Assembly: GCA_030605415.1 (NCBI GenBank)
Contig: JAUWIJ010000005.1
Span: 2,375-66,374, forward strand
Direction: 5' to 3'
Length of the DNA stretch: 64,000 nt
From: an archaeon
GTDB lineage: Archaea; Nanobdellota; Nanobdellia; Pacearchaeales; GW2011-AR1
The notes below the pieces were generated by a model, which had not been told where the DNA came from, made no database searches, and worked only from the letters and a program-made list of their open reading frames with translations. Positions within the stretch are counted from its first letter, which is position 1; each line of letters opens with the position of its first letter. Shown here in pieces: positions 872-63,663 of this stretch. The position numbers and the translations under genes were made by a program.

Positions 872-1576
872 GTGATGATTATGAAGAAGATTTTTGGTGG
901 TATTTTTGATAACGAGGTGCATGTGGCATTTTTGCGATTTGGTCGAGGGCAATATAAAAATAAATATTTGCTACATGGAAAAAGGCAGGCAAAGAATTGG
1001 GCAGTTAAAACGGGAGCGGAATATACAAATTTTTTGGTGAGAAGTTGTCTGGGAAAAATTGATGGATATGTTGCGATTAGGGGAGTTATTGTTTCGACTT
1101 TGGATTTGAAAAATGAGATTGAATTTGAAATTAAAAAAGTTAGTAATTTTCAGGGTGTTCGAAAATATATTATTGATATTGAAGTTGAGCCCTCGAAAAT
1201 TTTAGATTTGATGAATAAATATCCGAAGGGTTTTTTTGCTTTAAGTTTTAAGGGAGAGGGTTTTGTTTTGAAGATTAAAGCAAAGGCACCGAAAAATGGG
1301 AAGCCGGGAAAGGATGACAAGAAGCCGGTTGCTGATTTTTGTTCTCTGAAAACTGAGGATAGGGCAATTATTGATGAGTTGTTTTTCGGAGTTGGAGATT
1401 TTCAAGAGATTTCTATTAGCCATGAGATTGATGTAACCGATATTATTTATCCTGCAGATATAGAAAATTTGAAGCCGATTGAGATTAGAGAATTGGCGAA
1501 GAGAAAGGGTGTTATTAAAAGAGATATTGATGTGGACGGAATTATAAAAATGCGTGAAGTTGAATTTGTGGCGTAG
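872..1576 (+). CDS. hypothetical protein (start more likely ATG 875 or 881)
   Basis: Long ORF with a TATA-like motif about 30 nt upstream. I recognise no family. Confidence 0.5.
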   Translation: MMIMKKIFGGIFDNEVHVAFLRFGRGQYKNKYLLHGKRQAKNWAVKTGAEYTNFLVRSCLGKIDGYVAIRGVIVSTLDLKNEIEFEIKKVSNFQGVRKYIIDIEVEPSKILDLMNKYPKGFFALSFKGEGFVLKIKAKAPKNGKPGKDDKKPVADFCSLKTEDRAIIDELFFGVGDFQEISISHEIDVTDIIYPADIENLKPIEIRELAKRKGVIKRDIDVDGIIKMREVEFVA

Positions 1577-1610
1577 TAAGATTTAAATATAAGAAATTGT
1601 TTTAGATATC

Positions 1611-1982
1611 ATGAGGATTGATTGGGTTGCTGTTGTTGGAATTTTTGTTGCTTTGCTTTTGCTTGGTGGTATCCTTTGGGGAATTCCTAATTATAAGGTT
1701 TATGCTCGTGAGTTAAACGGGAAGGCACAATTGAGAGAGGCGGAATGGAATAGGCAGATTGCGGTTCAGGAAGCGGAGGCATTGAAGGAGTCGGCAAAAT
1801 TAAAAGCGGATGCTGAAGTTATTCGAGCGAAGGGAATTGCTGAGGCGAATGAAATTATTTCTGAAAGTTTAACTGAAAGATATATTCAATATAAGTTTGT
1901 CGAGGGGTTGAATGACGGAAATACCGAGGTGATATATGTACCGACTGAAGCGAATTTGCCAATTTTGGAAGCTAGGGGTTGA
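1611..1982 (+). CDS. N-terminally membrane-anchored SPFH/band-7 (prohibitin-like) short protein
   Basis: N-terminal TM helix followed by an Ala/Glu-rich coiled segment (AEALKESAKLKADAEVIRAKGIAEANEII) typical of SPFH C-terminal regions. Confidence 0.45.
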   Translation: MRIDWVAVVGIFVALLLLGGILWGIPNYKVYARELNGKAQLREAEWNRQIAVQEAEALKESAKLKADAEVIRAKGIAEANEIISESLTERYIQYKFVEGLNDGNTEVIYVPTEANLPILEARG

Positions 1983-2219
1983 TTAATCAAACCAGCCCAA
2001 CTTATCCCACTTATCCAATTTTTTAATTTGATATTCGGCTTTTTGTGCGTCAGATCTACTGGAACATTTTTTGGTTCGTAAAAGTTTTCTGAATTTTTTC
2101 TGGCGGACATATTTACTACCTTTGCCTTCGGCGTGAATTTTCATTCGTTTGTCGAGGTCGTTGGTAACGCCAGTATAAAAAGAACCATCTTGGCATTCGA
2201 GAATATAAACGAACCACAG
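1983..2219 (-). CDS. GIY-YIG nuclease domain protein (UPF0213/YhbQ-like); no canonical start at the domain boundary
   Basis: WFVYILECQDGSFYTGVTNDLDKRMKIHAEGKGSKYV matches the GIY-YIG core. The in-frame sequence upstream of 2219 is heptamer repeat, not protein-like. Confidence 0.65.
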   Translation of the reverse strand: MWFVYILECQDGSFYTGVTNDLDKRMKIHAEGKGSKYVRQKKFRKLLRTKKCSSRSDAQKAEYQIKKLDKWDKLGWFD

Positions 2220-2224
2220 TGCCT

Positions 2225-2410
2225 GGCACTGAGGTATTTGGTATTTGGGATTTGGGATTTGCAAGCGAGGGACACGAGCGAGGTATTTGGGATTTGGGAT
2301 TTGGGATTCGTGGGAGAGGGGAAGGGGAAACTGGTATTTGGGATTTGGGATTTGTGGGGACAGGGAACGGGGAAGCGAGGGACGAGACGAGGGATTTGGG
2401 ATTTGTGGAA
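2225..2410. repeat. mosaic repeat built from GGTATTT/GGGATTT heptamer arrays
   Basis: Runs of GGTATTT-GGGATTT-GGGATTT are separated by GAGGGACACGAGCGAGG-type linkers. Related copies lie at 54300-54480 and 60020-60095. Confidence 0.85.
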
Positions 2411-42114: not shown

Positions 42115-43056
42115 ATGAAAAGAATTTCTAAAATCGTTATTTTTGGAGGAAATGGCTTATTAGGTAGTGCGGTAAAAAGAGTGTTGGTTGAAAAAAATTT
42201 TGAAAATATAAAATCTCCGCGGAGTTCTGAGGTTAATTTATTGGAAAAGGATGGTTTGGAGAATTATCTTGAAGTGGAGCAACCAGAATATATTTTTATG
42301 ATAGCAGGATTAGTTGGCGGAATTCTGGGAAATAAAACTAGACCTGCAGATTTTCTTTATCAGAATTCAATGATGATATTAAATTTATTGGAAGGTGTTA
42401 GAAAGTTTTCGCCAAAAAGTAAGATTTTGTATACTGGCTCAACTTGTATTTATCCGAAGGATAATCCTCAACCGATTAATGAGAATAGATTTATGTGTGG
42501 GAAATTAGAAGAAACAAATAGGGGATATGCTGTTGCGAAGGGAATGGGTATTGTTGCTTGTCAGTTGTATCGGCAACAGTATGGCCTCGATACGATTTGT
42601 GTTATGCCTACTAATATATACGGATTAAATGATAATTACGATTTAGAAAATGGACATATGATTCCTAGTTTGATTAAGAAATTTTTGGTTGCAAAAAAAG
42701 ATGGTGGTAGTGTAACTTTGTGGGGCTCTGGCACTCCCCGACGAGAAACTATGTACAGTGAAGATTGTGCAGATGCAATTGTCTATTTAATGGAAAATTA
42801 TTCTTCTGAAAAAATTGTTAATATTGGAACTGGATTTGATTACTCTGTTAAAGAGATTGCTGACACAATAAAAGAGGAGGTTGGCGGGGAATATAAAATT
42901 GAATGGGATAACTCGAAACCAGACGGAACTTTTGAAAAAAGGACTGATATTTCTAAACTGAAAAATATTTATCCTGAATTTAATCCTCGAAGTTTGTCGA
43001 AAGGTGTTCGTGAAATTTTAGACAACAAGAAAGAAGTTGAAAGAATTCTTGGTTAG
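42115..43056 (+). CDS. fcl: GDP-4-keto-6-deoxy-D-mannose epimerase/reductase family (GDP-L-fucose synthase Fcl or GDP-L-colitose synthase ColC)
   Basis: SDR fold; GSTCIYPK and YAVAKGMG motifs; immediately after gmd. Confidence 0.8.
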   Translation: MKRISKIVIFGGNGLLGSAVKRVLVEKNFENIKSPRSSEVNLLEKDGLENYLEVEQPEYIFMIAGLVGGILGNKTRPADFLYQNSMMILNLLEGVRKFSPKSKILYTGSTCIYPKDNPQPINENRFMCGKLEETNRGYAVAKGMGIVACQLYRQQYGLDTICVMPTNIYGLNDNYDLENGHMIPSLIKKFLVAKKDGGSVTLWGSGTPRRETMYSEDCADAIVYLMENYSSEKIVNIGTGFDYSVKEIADTIKEEVGGEYKIEWDNSKPDGTFEKRTDISKLKNIYPEFNPRSLSKGVREILDNKKEVERILG

Positions 43057-43067
43057 TTATTAAGAAA

Positions 43068-43325
43068 TTAGGTCGCTTCGCTCCCAAATCTCAGAACTGA
43101 GGTCGTTTCACTCTGAGAACTTAGACCGCTTCGCTCTTTGCTTTAGAACTGAGACCGCTCATTTCATTCGCTCTTAGAACTGAGTACCCTCACCTATATA
43201 AAAGAAAAATAGGTTGGGGCAGACTCACCGCTTCGCTCTGAGAACTGCCCCCCGCTTCCCCTCTAAGTTCTCAGTTCTGAGTTCTTGCCAAAGATAGATA
43301 AATAGTTGTTAAAGGTTATGGATTA
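43068..43325. repeat. large composite mosaic element (CGCTTCGCT x3, AGAACT words, one core, conserved 3' tail)
   Basis: Core at 43185-43221. Left AGAACTGAG/GAGAACTTAGA words are mirrored on the right by CTCTAAGTTCTCAGTTCTGAG. Near-duplicate at 63285-63590. Confidence 0.9.
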
Positions 43326-43329
43326 AATT

Positions 43330-44892
43330 TTATTCTGCAAGTTGGCGTGCGATGTCGGCGAAAGCTGGTCGTGAAATTAAAACGCCTGTTGTGATTCCTA
43401 TCAATGTCGTTACTGCGAAACCTTTTAGAAGCCCTGCCGACGCTGCCCCAATACCCATAAAGCTCAAGAACCCTGTCAGCGGAATCATCGCTACGCATGT
43501 TGTTGCGAAAGCTGTTATGATAATGAAAAGTGCTTTTTTAATTCGTTGAACAATTGATTCAAATTTAGAACGCGCCTCGTCGAGAATAATTAGTTGGGAA
43601 TCTATACCTGTCCCGACTGCGGCGATGATTCCTGCGATTGAAGGCAGGTCTAGATTCCATCCTACCAGTGTCGCGACTCCGAGAATAATTAAGACTTCTG
43701 ACAGTGAGACTGTTACCAATGCCAACGAGACTTTGATTTTTCTGTATCTAACAAAGACGACGATTGAAACTGCGAGGATTGCGAAGAGTCCTGCCAGCAT
43801 AATCTGTTTTGTAAATTCTTCTCCCAGATTTGGAGAAATTTTATCGATTTTTACGATTTCTAATTTGAATGGTAGTGAGCCGGTGATAAGGATTGTTTGG
43901 AGTTTTTTCATTTCGAGTTTTGCTGCGTCGATTGCTTCGTCCCGTGTTGTTCCTGAGCCAGAGCCTGAAATTGCGATTTGTGTTGTTACCGAGCCCTTAA
44001 GCCCCGAACCTATATTGAGAGATGATGTTAATTTTTCGTCTATAAAAAAATCTAATTTCTTACTTAGGTATGAGCCGTTGATTGTTAGTTTGTCCGTTAT
44101 GTCTGCGTGTCTTTGTGCGGCTTCCTCACTTAGAAAAATTGTGAACTGGAAATTACAGTATTCTCCGCCGTCTTGAGACTGGTGACATTCTGTTATAAGT
44201 GCGTCCTGCCCCGTTCTGCCAACGTGCGTTATGTCTTTATCTCCTCCAATGAAAACTGTATCGTTTCCGATTTTTGCTTCGAACTTTCCCTGTTTTGCAA
44301 TTAGTTCCTCCAGGTCATCTGGCGATGTTCCGGCTATTTCGATTCCCATTAAGTTGTCTCCGGAAGATGTTAAGACTTTGAAAAATTTGACGTCGGAAAA
44401 TCCGTAGACATTTAGTCGTTGCTCGGAAACTGCGATTAGGTCATTCAGCTGGGCATCATTTAGTGGGATGTCTGCTTTGATAAATGCCCGCGCGCCGCCT
44501 CGTAAATCTAAGCCTGTTTTGATTCTTGAGATTGGAATTTCTTCTGCTGAAATGTCGTCGATGATTTGTTTGGTAAATAAATTTATAATTTCAAGTCCTT
44601 CTGTTTGAATGGTTAATTTTTGCGTTTCGTTTTCGTCTAAGTTGCTGAATGACTTAAGTGATATTTTGTAATCTTCTATGGATTCGATTATTTGTCCGTT
44701 TATTGATAGGATTGTCATTCCTTCCCGAAGTCCATGTTCAAAAATTGTTGAGTTTTGTTTGACTGATGTTACAACTACTCCGTCTCTGAGAATCATTGGG
44801 GGTATTGAAAAAATAGAAATTAAAGAAAGTGTGACTACCACTATTAATACCCATATTTTAAAGGTTATTTTCATTGTTTCTCGACGTGCCAT
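43330..44892 (-). CDS. secD: protein-export membrane protein SecD (alternative start 44874)
   Basis: Large periplasmic-type domain plus a C-terminal 6-TM domain with GWNLDLPSIAGIIAAVGTGIDSQLII; adjacent secF. Confidence 0.9.
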   Translation of the reverse strand: MARRETMKITFKIWVLIVVVTLSLISIFSIPPMILRDGVVVTSVKQNSTIFEHGLREGMTILSINGQIIESIEDYKISLKSFSNLDENETQKLTIQTEGLEIINLFTKQIIDDISAEEIPISRIKTGLDLRGGARAFIKADIPLNDAQLNDLIAVSEQRLNVYGFSDVKFFKVLTSSGDNLMGIEIAGTSPDDLEELIAKQGKFEAKIGNDTVFIGGDKDITHVGRTGQDALITECHQSQDGGEYCNFQFTIFLSEEAAQRHADITDKLTINGSYLSKKLDFFIDEKLTSSLNIGSGLKGSVTTQIAISGSGSGTTRDEAIDAAKLEMKKLQTILITGSLPFKLEIVKIDKISPNLGEEFTKQIMLAGLFAILAVSIVVFVRYRKIKVSLALVTVSLSEVLIILGVATLVGWNLDLPSIAGIIAAVGTGIDSQLIILDEARSKFESIVQRIKKALFIIITAFATTCVAMIPLTGFLSFMGIGAASAGLLKGFAVTTLIGITTGVLISRPAFADIARQLAE

Positions 44893-45881
44893 TTAATTAT
44901 TGAAGCGTTTGTTATCCATGTGTTGAAAAGATCGAAGCCGAGGCCGATTAATAGGATTGTGAAAATTTGATTAAGGACGGATGCGAAAGAGTAAACGGTG
45001 ATTAGTGCTACGGTGATTGCGATGATAGATGTGACTGTCATTGTTGTTCCGGTTTTGAACGCCCCGAAAAGTGCTTTGTTCACGCTCTCTTTTCTTTTTA
45101 GAAGTCGTGTCGTTAGAAGAATATCTGTGTCTACGGAGTAACCTATAAGCATAAGGAACGCGACTATCCCCGCAGTTGATATTTTTATTCCAATGATGTC
45201 AACAATTGTGAGTGTCATAATAATACTCGAAAAGGCGCAAAGCATTACTGCGAAAGCGGGGACTGAGTTTTTGATATATATTCTGATAAGCGTTATCGCA
45301 AACGCAAGAAAAATAATTGCTGAAATAATTGGATTAATTGTTAAGAAAAATTTTCCCAGAAAAAATCCAAATAATATATTTAGAACAATTATCCAAAATT
45401 TTGTTTTATTGCCTTTGGAGAAAATTAGAAAAACGACTGCCGCCATCCAGAAGAATGCGAGTATAACCGCAACAATTAGTTGTTTGTAAAAGTCTGCGGA
45501 AAGTGAAGCGCTTGTTGTCTCTTTCGATGAATTTTCGGAAGTTAGGTTATAGCCGAGAAAATCTTCCAGAAGTATTTCGAGGGTTTCTGTATTTGATTCT
45601 CCGACAGTGACCATTAATTGTATTTGGTTTCCTGCGTTGTCTGAAATTGTTTTGATTTCAAAATCGGAGATATTTTTTGAAATTGTATTTTCTATTTCTT
45701 GTGATGAAATTTCGGTTTGGATTGTAATCGTGGTTCCGCCGGTCAGGGATACGTCTTTGTTAATTATGTCGCCGGTTTGCATGTAAAAAAATCCTAGATA
45801 TAATATAGATAGCGTTAATACGACGGCTGGAATAATTAGAAGTGTTTTGTGATTTTTGTTGTACCACTGTTCGAATTCCAT
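44871..45881 (-). CDS. secF: protein-export membrane protein SecF
   Basis: N-terminal TM, extracytoplasmic domain, C-terminal TM bundle (GYSVDTDILLTTR). Confidence 0.88.
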   Translation of the reverse strand: MEFEQWYNKNHKTLLIIPAVVLTLSILYLGFFYMQTGDIINKDVSLTGGTTITIQTEISSQEIENTISKNISDFEIKTISDNAGNQIQLMVTVGESNTETLEILLEDFLGYNLTSENSSKETTSASLSADFYKQLIVAVILAFFWMAAVVFLIFSKGNKTKFWIIVLNILFGFFLGKFFLTINPIISAIIFLAFAITLIRIYIKNSVPAFAVMLCAFSSIIMTLTIVDIIGIKISTAGIVAFLMLIGYSVDTDILLTTRLLKRKESVNKALFGAFKTGTTMTVTSIIAITVALITVYSFASVLNQIFTILLIGLGFDLFNTWITNASIIKWHVEKQ

Positions 45882-62065: not shown

Positions 62066-62890
62066 TTATAAGTTATCTATTGGGGATTTTATTTTTTTTA
62101 TTTGTTCTGTTGAGACGTGAGTGTATATTTGTGTCGTCGATAAATCGGCGTGTCCGAGTAGTTCCTGAATGTGCCTTATATCGATTCCGCTTTCTAATAG
62201 GTGAGTTGCGAATGAGTGTCTGAGCGTGTGACAATGGACGCCTTTTAGTCCGGCTCGGTTGGCGGCCGATGAAACTATTTTTTGGATGTTTCTCGTGGAG
62301 AGTTTTCCGTTTCGCCCCGTGAATAGATATTCTTTTCCTTTTTGTTTTTCCGTCTGATATTGAAGTTCGTCGGTTAAAAATTCTGGGATGTTAAAAATTC
62401 TGTCTTTGTTTCCCTTTGCCTGACGAATGTAACCAATTTTTTCTGGGAAATTTAGGTTTGCAATTTTTAAATTTACTAATTCAGAAACTCGGAACCCACA
62501 GGCATACATTAGACTGACTATTAGTTTTGATTTTTCGGTTTTGAGTTCTTCGAGTAATTTTTTAATTTCGTCTTTTGATAAAATTGTCGGGAGTTGTTGT
62601 TCTTTTTTTGGTCGTTTGATTGAGGCGGTGATATCGTTGTTGAAGATTGAGAGGTAGGCATATTTGATTGCGGAGAGAAAAAGTATGATTGACATTGCGG
62701 CCTTGTCGGTTAGGTTTTCGGCGATGAAAAGTTTGACATCTTCTGTTGTGATTTTATCTGGAGATTTATTTATGAAGTTTAATAATTTTTTATTTGATTT
62801 GACGTAATTACGAATAGTGTGGCTTGAGTTTTTTGATATTTTTAGCTCTACCTCTATTTTTTTTAGAAATTCGTCTGAGTTCATTTTCAC
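62066..62890 (-). CDS. xerA: tyrosine recombinase, XerA/XerC/D-like
   Basis: GFRVSEL, HTLRHSFATHLL and LLGHADLSTTQIYTHV catalytic motifs. Confidence 0.88.
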   Translation of the reverse strand: MKMNSDEFLKKIEVELKISKNSSHTIRNYVKSNKKLLNFINKSPDKITTEDVKLFIAENLTDKAAMSIILFLSAIKYAYLSIFNNDITASIKRPKKEQQLPTILSKDEIKKLLEELKTEKSKLIVSLMYACGFRVSELVNLKIANLNFPEKIGYIRQAKGNKDRIFNIPEFLTDELQYQTEKQKGKEYLFTGRNGKLSTRNIQKIVSSAANRAGLKGVHCHTLRHSFATHLLESGIDIRHIQELLGHADLSTTQIYTHVSTEQIKKIKSPIDNL

Positions 62891-63219: not shown

Positions 63220-63284
63220 GTATTTTGATTTTCGTCTAACCGAATAACTATTATTTTGTTTGATGTGGTTGGTTTATATGATTA

Positions 63285-63590
63285 GGTCGCTTCGCTCCCC
63301 ATAGAACTTAGAATTGAGTACCCTCACTTATATAAAAGAAAAATAGGTTGGGGCAGACTCACCGCTTCGCTCTTTGCTTTAGAATTGAGACCGCTCATTT
63401 CATTCGCTCTTAGAACTGAGTACCCTACCATATATAAAAGATAAATATGTTGGGGCAGACCCACCGCTTCGCTCTGAGAACTGTCCCCCGCTTTCCCCTC
63501 TGAGTTCTGAGATCTGAGTTCTGGAAAAACATAATGTTTTTCCTACAGTTCTTGCCAGAGATAGATGAATAGTCGTTAAAGGTTATATAT
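63285..63590. repeat. large composite mosaic element with two cores; paralog of 43068-43325
   Basis: Cores at 63319-63355 and 63421-63458. Shares CGCTTCGCT units, AGAACT/AGAATT words and the tail GTTCTTGCCAGAGATAGATGAATAGTCGTTAAAGGTTAT with 43068-43325. Confidence 0.9.
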
Positions 63591-63663
63591 TAGAATTTAC
63601 CGTGCATCTCTCACATTTCTGCTAAGAAACAATATTTTTAACTCTCATTATTTTATGTTTCTC

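Follow-up and report, generated by a model that had tools for sequence, protein, structure and literature searches.

Several kinds of short repeat and small mobile element come close to the DNA described here. Elhai and colleagues reportedly described very small nested mobile repeats of cyanobacteria in 2008. IS200/IS605-derived PATEs and single-strand or rolling-circle elements have asymmetric ends, a short target that is not duplicated and a strict orientation, with possible carry-along of flanking DNA, and Rickettsia palindromic elements occur in frame inside protein genes. The intergenic heptamer arrays of heterocystous cyanobacteria and of Xanthomonas, which include STRR arrays and G-rich heptamer repeats, vary strongly between close relatives, according to the account of Mazel et al. 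(1990; PMC208921) as relayed in PMC4692102. Heptameric repeats are over-represented in prokaryotes, an excess that has been attributed to polymerase slippage (PMC4692102). The BrickBuilt MITE of Porphyromonas gingivalis consists of a leader, a tandem 23-nt minisatellite and a tail; it is always intergenic, is present in about 19 copies, and has small inverted-repeat ends and promoter activity (PMC4596501). Among archaea, some DPANN genomes have high densities of MITEs according to a census (PMC11602168).

The window analysed here is a 64,000-nt stretch of the source genome G000, a small-genome archaeon whose assembly comprises 888 kb in 22 contigs (C1, C5, C7 and so on), with 35% G+C and 89% completeness; G024 is a relative in the same genus. 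The gene for a GDP-L-fucose synthase-like epimerase (fcl) and secD converge in G000 on a stop-to-stop spacer of 273 nt, which contains the element that we call copy A; its sister copy is copy B. The top scores of the G000 SecD and SecF proteins were to families PRK08343 and PRK08578, which we take to be the archaeal SecD/SecF models. Both gene ends at the junction are intact, and the C-terminus of fcl was not altered by the insertion (ERILG* in G000, ERILS* in G024). The features, in positions of the window, are:

42115-43056, plus strand: fcl, the left flanking gene, with its stop codon at 43054-43056
43057-43067, no strand assigned: host spacer TTATTAAGAAA, in which the TTATTAA common to the 17-nt spacer of G024 is still visible ahead of the element
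43068-43084, plus strand: left terminus T1 (17 nt), TTAGGTCGCTTCGCTCC, found in about 15 good copies across the genome, each with unique, A/T-rich DNA ahead of it
43085-43184, plus strand: unit arm, in which four forward (N)AGAACT words alternate with three motif variants
43102-43113, plus strand: unit-arm motif GTCGTTTCACTC
43125-43136, plus strand: unit-arm motif ACCGCTTCGCTC
43155-43173, plus strand: long unit-arm variant CCGCTCATTTCATTCGCTC
43185-43226, plus strand: nested core insert of 42 nt, TACCCTCAC-N19-GGTTGGGGCA-GACTC, without target duplication
43227-43246, plus strand: last unit of the arm, ACCGCTTCGCTC and the word TGAGAACT
43247-43261, plus strand: short C-rich centre, GCCCCCCGCTTCCCC
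43262-43285, plus strand: inverted word array TCTAAGT TCTCAGT TCTGAGT TCT, period 7, mirroring the left-hand words
43286-43325, plus strand: right tail T2, TGCCAAAGATAGATAAATAGTTGTTAAAGGTTATGGAT, 91% identical in copy B, with variants at about five more element ends
43330-44892, minus strand: secD, the right flanking gene, with its stop codon at 43330-43332
44871-45881: secF, following secD
63282-63596, plus strand: copy B, with T1, units, a nested core in the same place, centre, inverted words and T2

The original prediction had placed three CGCTTCGCTC motifs, AGAACT-type words and one core (43185-43221) between the convergent 3' ends of fcl and secD, and all of these were found there. The CGCTTCGCTC motifs begin at 43074, 43127 and 43229; the whole window holds six, against 0.02 expected from shuffles, and the remaining three are inside copy B (63288-63474). 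Copy A contains five forward AGAACT words (43093-43246) and three inverted AGTTCT words (43266-43285), and according to Tandem Repeats Finder the left arm has periods of 23 and 29 nt and the right arm one of 7 nt. The predicted mirroring of left-hand words on the right is exact, with CTGAGAACTTAGA matching TCTAAGTTCTCAG over 13 of 13 nt and CTCAGAACTGAG matching CTCAGTTCTGAG over 12 of 12, the latter pair being close to self-palindromic and given its direction only by the central AA or TT. The idea that these words form terminal-inverted-repeat-like ends had to be abandoned: the inverted words are subterminal, the right end of copy A offers no inverted counterpart of T1, and the right tail T2 (TGCCAAAGATAGATAAATAGTTGTTAAAGGTTAT) is unrelated to T1. 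The first TTA of T1 is probably target sequence, with the element proper beginning at GGTCGC, and the outer part of T2 may be element or else carried-along flank.

The sequence of the element matches about 80 places in G000. By module marking we recognised 65 composites, which together occupy 12.4 kb or 1.4% of the genome, and 61 clusters have at least three AGAACT words. The family follows a common grammar, in which the terminus T1 (TTAGGTCGCTTYGCTCC in its general form) leads into units of 23-31 nt each, built from (N)AGAACT words and (G/A)CCGCTTCGCTC or the longer variant CCGCTCATTTCATTCGCTC; these are followed by a C-rich centre, which is either short as in copy A or about 90 nt long with a GGGGGCGTGCCCCC palindrome, then by heptamer words in the opposite orientation, and finally by a variable right end, which is a T2 tail, a hairpin of the GGAAAAAC..GTTTTTCC type or nothing but words. 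The opposite strand of CCGCTTCGCTC contains GCGAAGC, which is a stable DNA mini-hairpin. Module number varies, and the composites are not fully colinear from copy to copy. The bases just before T1 read (T)TTA in about 10 of 13 outer copies, a small sample from A/T-rich flanks, and ATTTA is already present in G024 at two orthologous empty sites where T1 would abut (n = 2, likewise in A/T-rich flanks). The forward-then-inverted word order is independent of gene context, occurring in ++, --, +- and -+ arrangements, which rules out the inverted words as halves of two convergent 3' UTRs. Among 18 cases with neighbouring genes in tandem, crude ORF calls make the G-rich strand the sense strand in 14.

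Individual members of the family add further detail. At C5:56128-56272, a composite of about 185 nt lies in frame directly after the first four to five codons of a gene, which begins MKFDYKKIG in G024 and MKSDK...(insert)...YDYKKVG in G000, and is flanked by an imperfect 9-nt duplication, CGACAAGAA and CGACTATAA. The long-centre copy at C1:54891-55300 has T1-like termini at both ends, inverted to each other, and lies between the two copies of a 21-nt direct repeat, CTAAAAAATAGTTAGYTTAAAA; G024 yielded no ortholog of this site. Small A/T palindromes, GGAAAAAC-N5-GTTTTTCC or GGATTTTT..AAAAATCC, often cap the word arm (window 63536-63556; C5:36033-36053; C13:7103-7125), and, with T-runs on both strands, are candidate bidirectional archaeal termination signals.

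Set beside the known systems, the G000 family has several features in common with STRR and the very small repeats: intergenic tandem heptamers in several alphabets per genome, strong variation between close relatives, and small discrete inserts that lie within the arrays and leave no duplicated target. It differs from STRR systems in its host, an archaeon with a genome below 1 Mb, and in that its arrays are parts of a larger, polar composite, where 23-31-nt units follow a defined terminus and the words change orientation at a C-rich centre. As in enterobacterial BIME/REP sequences, we observed mosaic intergenic clusters in high copy number, with motifs of alternating orientation, at gene 3' ends and without target duplication; however, BIME/REP motifs are imperfect palindromes of 20-40 nt, whereas those of G000 are heptamer words and a GCGAAGC-containing unit, and no Y1_Tnp/RAYT gene was found in G000. 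The layout of leader, 23-nt repeat and tail, the intergenic position and a repeat number that varies by copy all recall BrickBuilt, although the ends of the G000 element are unrelated to each other and its words flip orientation at the C-rich centre. Resemblance to IS200/IS605 PATEs lies in asymmetric ends, a left end abutting a TTTA-like target (about 13 copies and two empty sites), orientation specificity and a poorly defined far end, but G000 has no TnpA or TnpB match (nor one to Y2, for which the search was uninformative). Some members lie in frame in genes, as Rickettsia palindromic elements do (for example C5:56128-56272), yet copy A is strictly intergenic and a mosaic rather than one palindromic unit. 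The likeness to a MITE that the original prediction drew stands in part: the element is small, discrete, non-coding and multi-copy, with recognisable ends and presence or absence between relatives, including an empty site in G024, but it has no terminal inverted repeats, no fixed or consistent target duplication, and no related transposase was found in the 89% complete assembly.

A genome search recovered further copies with conserved ends, as had been anticipated: copy B, and C7:48753-49006, in which both end types (T1 and a variant of T2) enclose a long centre. Although 20 kb separate them, copies A and B are 91% identical and colinear from T1 to T2, and their cores occupy the same position with five substitutions; relative to copy A, copy B has one 23-nt unit fewer, one core more and an additional GGAAAAAC..GTTTTTCC hairpin. 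Copy B also lies between convergent genes, and its site in G024 is without the element. The unit arm of copy A is colinear with those of copy B and of C1:55107-55253, which has the same arm and no core. Because A and B agree in the position of a nested core and have both end modules in common, the composite was copied as a whole unit; the copies show that it propagates whole and then changes module by module.

The core itself, from which the original prediction thought the element to be built, is absent from many family members and is a separate guest insert, not the heart of the element. In copy A, exactly 42 nt (43185-43226) split CTTAGAACTGAG from ACCGCTTCGCTC with no bases duplicated, and at the paralogous core-free site in C1 the sequence runs unbroken from CATTCGCTCTTAGAACTGAG into ACCGCTTCGCTCTGAGAACT, so that the nested insertion is precise. 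There are about 30 full-length core copies by BLAST and 98 pattern matches genome-wide, and the insert interrupts other heptamer alphabets elsewhere in G000. Next to AGAACT words, the core takes their orientation in 26 of 26 cases.

Comparison with G024 revealed an empty orthologous site at the junction. G024 is the closest of the 49 genomes in the genus (SecD 94% and Fcl 86% identical), and among 30 retrieved loci it alone keeps the convergent fcl/secD arrangement. Since its spacer there is only 17 nt long (TTATTAATTTTAAAGAT), against 273 nt in G000, about 265 nt are extra DNA in G000. Joined flanks of a further 28 composites served as queries against G024, where both flanks were found together for 17; at 11 of these 17 sites the G024 spacer is no longer than 90 nt, compared with 146-472 nt in G000. 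Four-fold-degenerate sites differ between the two genomes by 30% in secD and 26% in fcl, whereas copies A and B differ by 9%, which places the duplication that produced A and B after the split of the two species, provided that the copies have not been made alike by gene conversion. It is on this argument from copy age that gain versus loss at fcl/secD rests, because no outgroup keeps the synteny. A search for target-site duplications in filled and empty pairs at 12 loci turned up nothing consistent: there was a 7-nt duplication once (TAAATCT/TAAATTT, C6:25248-25659) and one of 4-9 nt once, and the remaining loci, fcl/secD included, had no target duplication or a replaced spacer.

Four junctions hold repeats in both genomes with different module content (C7:48753-49006, C3:6866-7118, C4:5631-6008 and C19:23534-23721 in G000, against L080, L079, L084 and L074 in G024). 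At three of them, other alphabets in G024 (ACTACCA, TAGTCGG, CAAATCC) stand opposite AGAACT composites in G000, and at C19:23534-23721 AGAACT words are present in both genomes, in different modules. Such junctions look like hot spots of fast turnover.

Across the 49 genomes of the genus, the distribution of AGAACTNAGAACT is that of a lineage-specific burst, with 100 occurrences in G000, 13 in G024, 10 in G004 and at most five in each of the other 46; the reversed pattern, as a control, occurs 0 times in G000. The triple word was absent from all 400 other genomes sampled across the phylum, and no copies of the element were detected on IMG/VR viral contigs. One composite with the same grammar is present on a public MAG contig, which we took to be from G024 by the architecture of the element. 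Two JGI metagenome contigs matched the terminus (L095 1001-1021 and L096 1112-1132) through the exact 21-mer TTAGGTCGCTTCGCTCCCAGA and otherwise bear no resemblance; both are high-GC contigs of unrelated organisms in which the 21-mer lies within what appears to be a repeat of their own, and the matches are probably due to chance.

Searches of the 89% complete G000 assembly for a mobilising enzyme gave no match to Y1_Tnp/RAYT (PF01797), for which the control was positive in 6 of 14 genomes, and none to the TnpB zinc ribbon, DDE_Tnp_1, rve or IS110, for which the controls worked. Y2_Tnp had no match in G000 either, a result that is uninformative since its control was positive in no genome. Since contigs often end at repeats and completeness is 89%, these results do not prove that a transposase is absent. 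A weak resolvase match beside an element end on C12 turned out to be a TrmB-type regulator. G000 has two reverse transcriptases, both of retroelement type. One (L091, C11:1-3608; gene at 1149-2309, minus strand) is accompanied by 130-nt direct repeats at 865-994 and 2556-2685 that are 89% identical, one of them at the 3' end of a 263-aa ORF, a template and variable repeat layout that, judged by sequence, is typical of a diversity-generating retroelement. The other (L090, C9:41829-45416; gene at 1294-2298, minus strand) is group-II-intron- or retron-like by NCBIfam and adjoins a giant ORF of about 10.6 kb (C9:32324-42985), and no repeat pair was found within 3.6 kb. There are also two XerA-like tyrosine recombinases of about 273 aa with near-equal scores, at window 62108-62581 (minus strand) and C7:35063-35542; the former lies about 700 nt from copy B, and neither is tied to the element by any evidence found.

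We lean towards the view that copy A is a lineage-specific, non-autonomous mosaic repeat, a kind of selfish DNA similar to a MITE or BIME, and that it came into the fcl/secD spacer once G000 and G024 had split, with the caveats that variable module content is also expected from local slippage and gene conversion, and that A and B could look younger than their true age through gene conversion. Taken further, these same processes would give an account without any transposition, in which heptamers and 23-31-nt units grow in place by slippage at permissive intergenic sites and the copies come to resemble one another by ectopic recombination or gene conversion. Module number does differ between otherwise colinear copies, target duplication is inconsistent, spacers are often replaced, the same junctions hold different word alphabets in G000 and G024, no transposase was found, and the prokaryotic excess of heptameric repeats has been put down to polymerase slippage (PMC4692102). 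We nevertheless regard growth in place as unlikely, because slippage is unable to make a terminus, C-rich centre and flipped words of about 250 nt where the relative has 17 nt, and because the terminus adjoins the same TTTA-like sequence at most copies. The position of the nested core and both end modules shared by A and B across 20 kb also require that a whole unit was copied into a site without prior homology. Descent from a DDE insertion sequence by deletion, as in a classical MITE, whose terminal inverted repeats are bound by the transposase of the parent and whose target duplication is of fixed length, is the least probable of the readings that we considered. The element is small, non-coding, multi-copy and intergenic, empty sites exist, and the opposed short words in its two arms resemble the subterminal transposase-binding repeats of some transposons. 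The MITE densities reported in some DPANN genomes (PMC11602168) would also agree with such an origin. Its two termini are unrelated, however, the copies are not colinear over their full length, no target duplication is of fixed length, and the assembly holds no DDE, rve or IS110 transposase.

A function at the junction, whether as a terminator or insulator acting in both directions, as a small-RNA gene or structured 3' UTR, or as an array to which a DNA-binding protein attaches, would fit the placing of copies A and B exactly between convergent 3' ends and the bias of the G-rich strand towards the sense strand. The GGAAAAAC..GTTTTTCC hairpins with T-runs in related copies resemble archaeal termination signals, and promoter activity is known for BrickBuilt, a similar element of bacteria (PMC4596501). 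Copy A itself, though, has no T-run longer than three on either strand, and the folding check that the original prediction proposed gave it no help, as the predicted RNA folds of both strands are not beyond those of shuffles (z = -1.4 and -0.9). Nor do the arms of one element pair better than those of different elements: local alignment of the left arm with the reverse complement of right arms gave a mean score of 25 within the same element and 34 between different elements (mean percentile 0.31), so arm pairing is not maintained. Together, the fold scores and this lower own-arm complementarity rule out a selected long hairpin or a fold-back origin. Rfam had no match to copy A at gathering score, and the sole sub-threshold match overlapping the element, to the ylbH leader, is noise (18.6 bits against a gathering score of 50, E = 0.14). 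Since members of the family are also found in every one of the four gene contexts, as well as in frame within genes, and since the orthologous G024 junction lacks the element and 11 of 17 sites are short there, we consider a function highly improbable. The effect of the element on fcl and secD is probably neutral, and copy A looks like selfish DNA without a recognisable transposase rather than a regulatory device.

If copy A is indeed such a selfish mosaic repeat, its history would run as follows. A composite with a fixed polar grammar, from a left terminus abutting a TTTA-like target through the arm of 23-31-nt units, the C-rich centre and the opposite heptamers to a variable tail, would be copied whole into new intergenic sites by sequence-targeted insertion without target duplication. 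Later change would consist of the gain or loss of whole modules (units, heptamers and small hairpins), and a separate 42-nt mini-element would enter copies in the orientation of the surrounding words. A trans-acting enzyme, either unrecognised or absent from the assembly, would probably be responsible, and the element at fcl/secD would have no function beyond its own persistence. A more specific proposal, which we think quite improbable, is that the AGAACT composites are non-autonomous partners of an undescribed archaeal system. In such a system one end, the left terminus, would be joined on the 3' side of TTTA by way of an intermediate that is single-stranded or resembles a rolling circle, and the target would not be duplicated. 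The enzyme, which would be unrelated to known HUH or DDE types or come from a host cell or virus, would find its subterminal binding sites in the opposed AGAACT words, and the GCGAAGC mini-hairpins would mark the strand.

What is new here is the grammar of the AGAACT subfamily, together with the T1 terminus and the TTTA-like sequence beside it. The empty sites at orthologous loci, the evidence that the composite was copied whole and the negative arm-pairing test are also new. Genomes below 1 Mb are expected to shed selfish DNA. G000, which is in this size range, gives about 1.4% of its length to one mosaic-repeat subfamily, which expanded after the split from its sister species and reached the neighbourhoods of essential genes. 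The filled and empty pairs, together with sister copies that carry nested inserts, provide material on movement without a known transposase. The same material bears on the rate at which intergenic DNA turns over in DPANN archaea and on the number of contig breaks that these repeats cause in such metagenome-assembled genomes.
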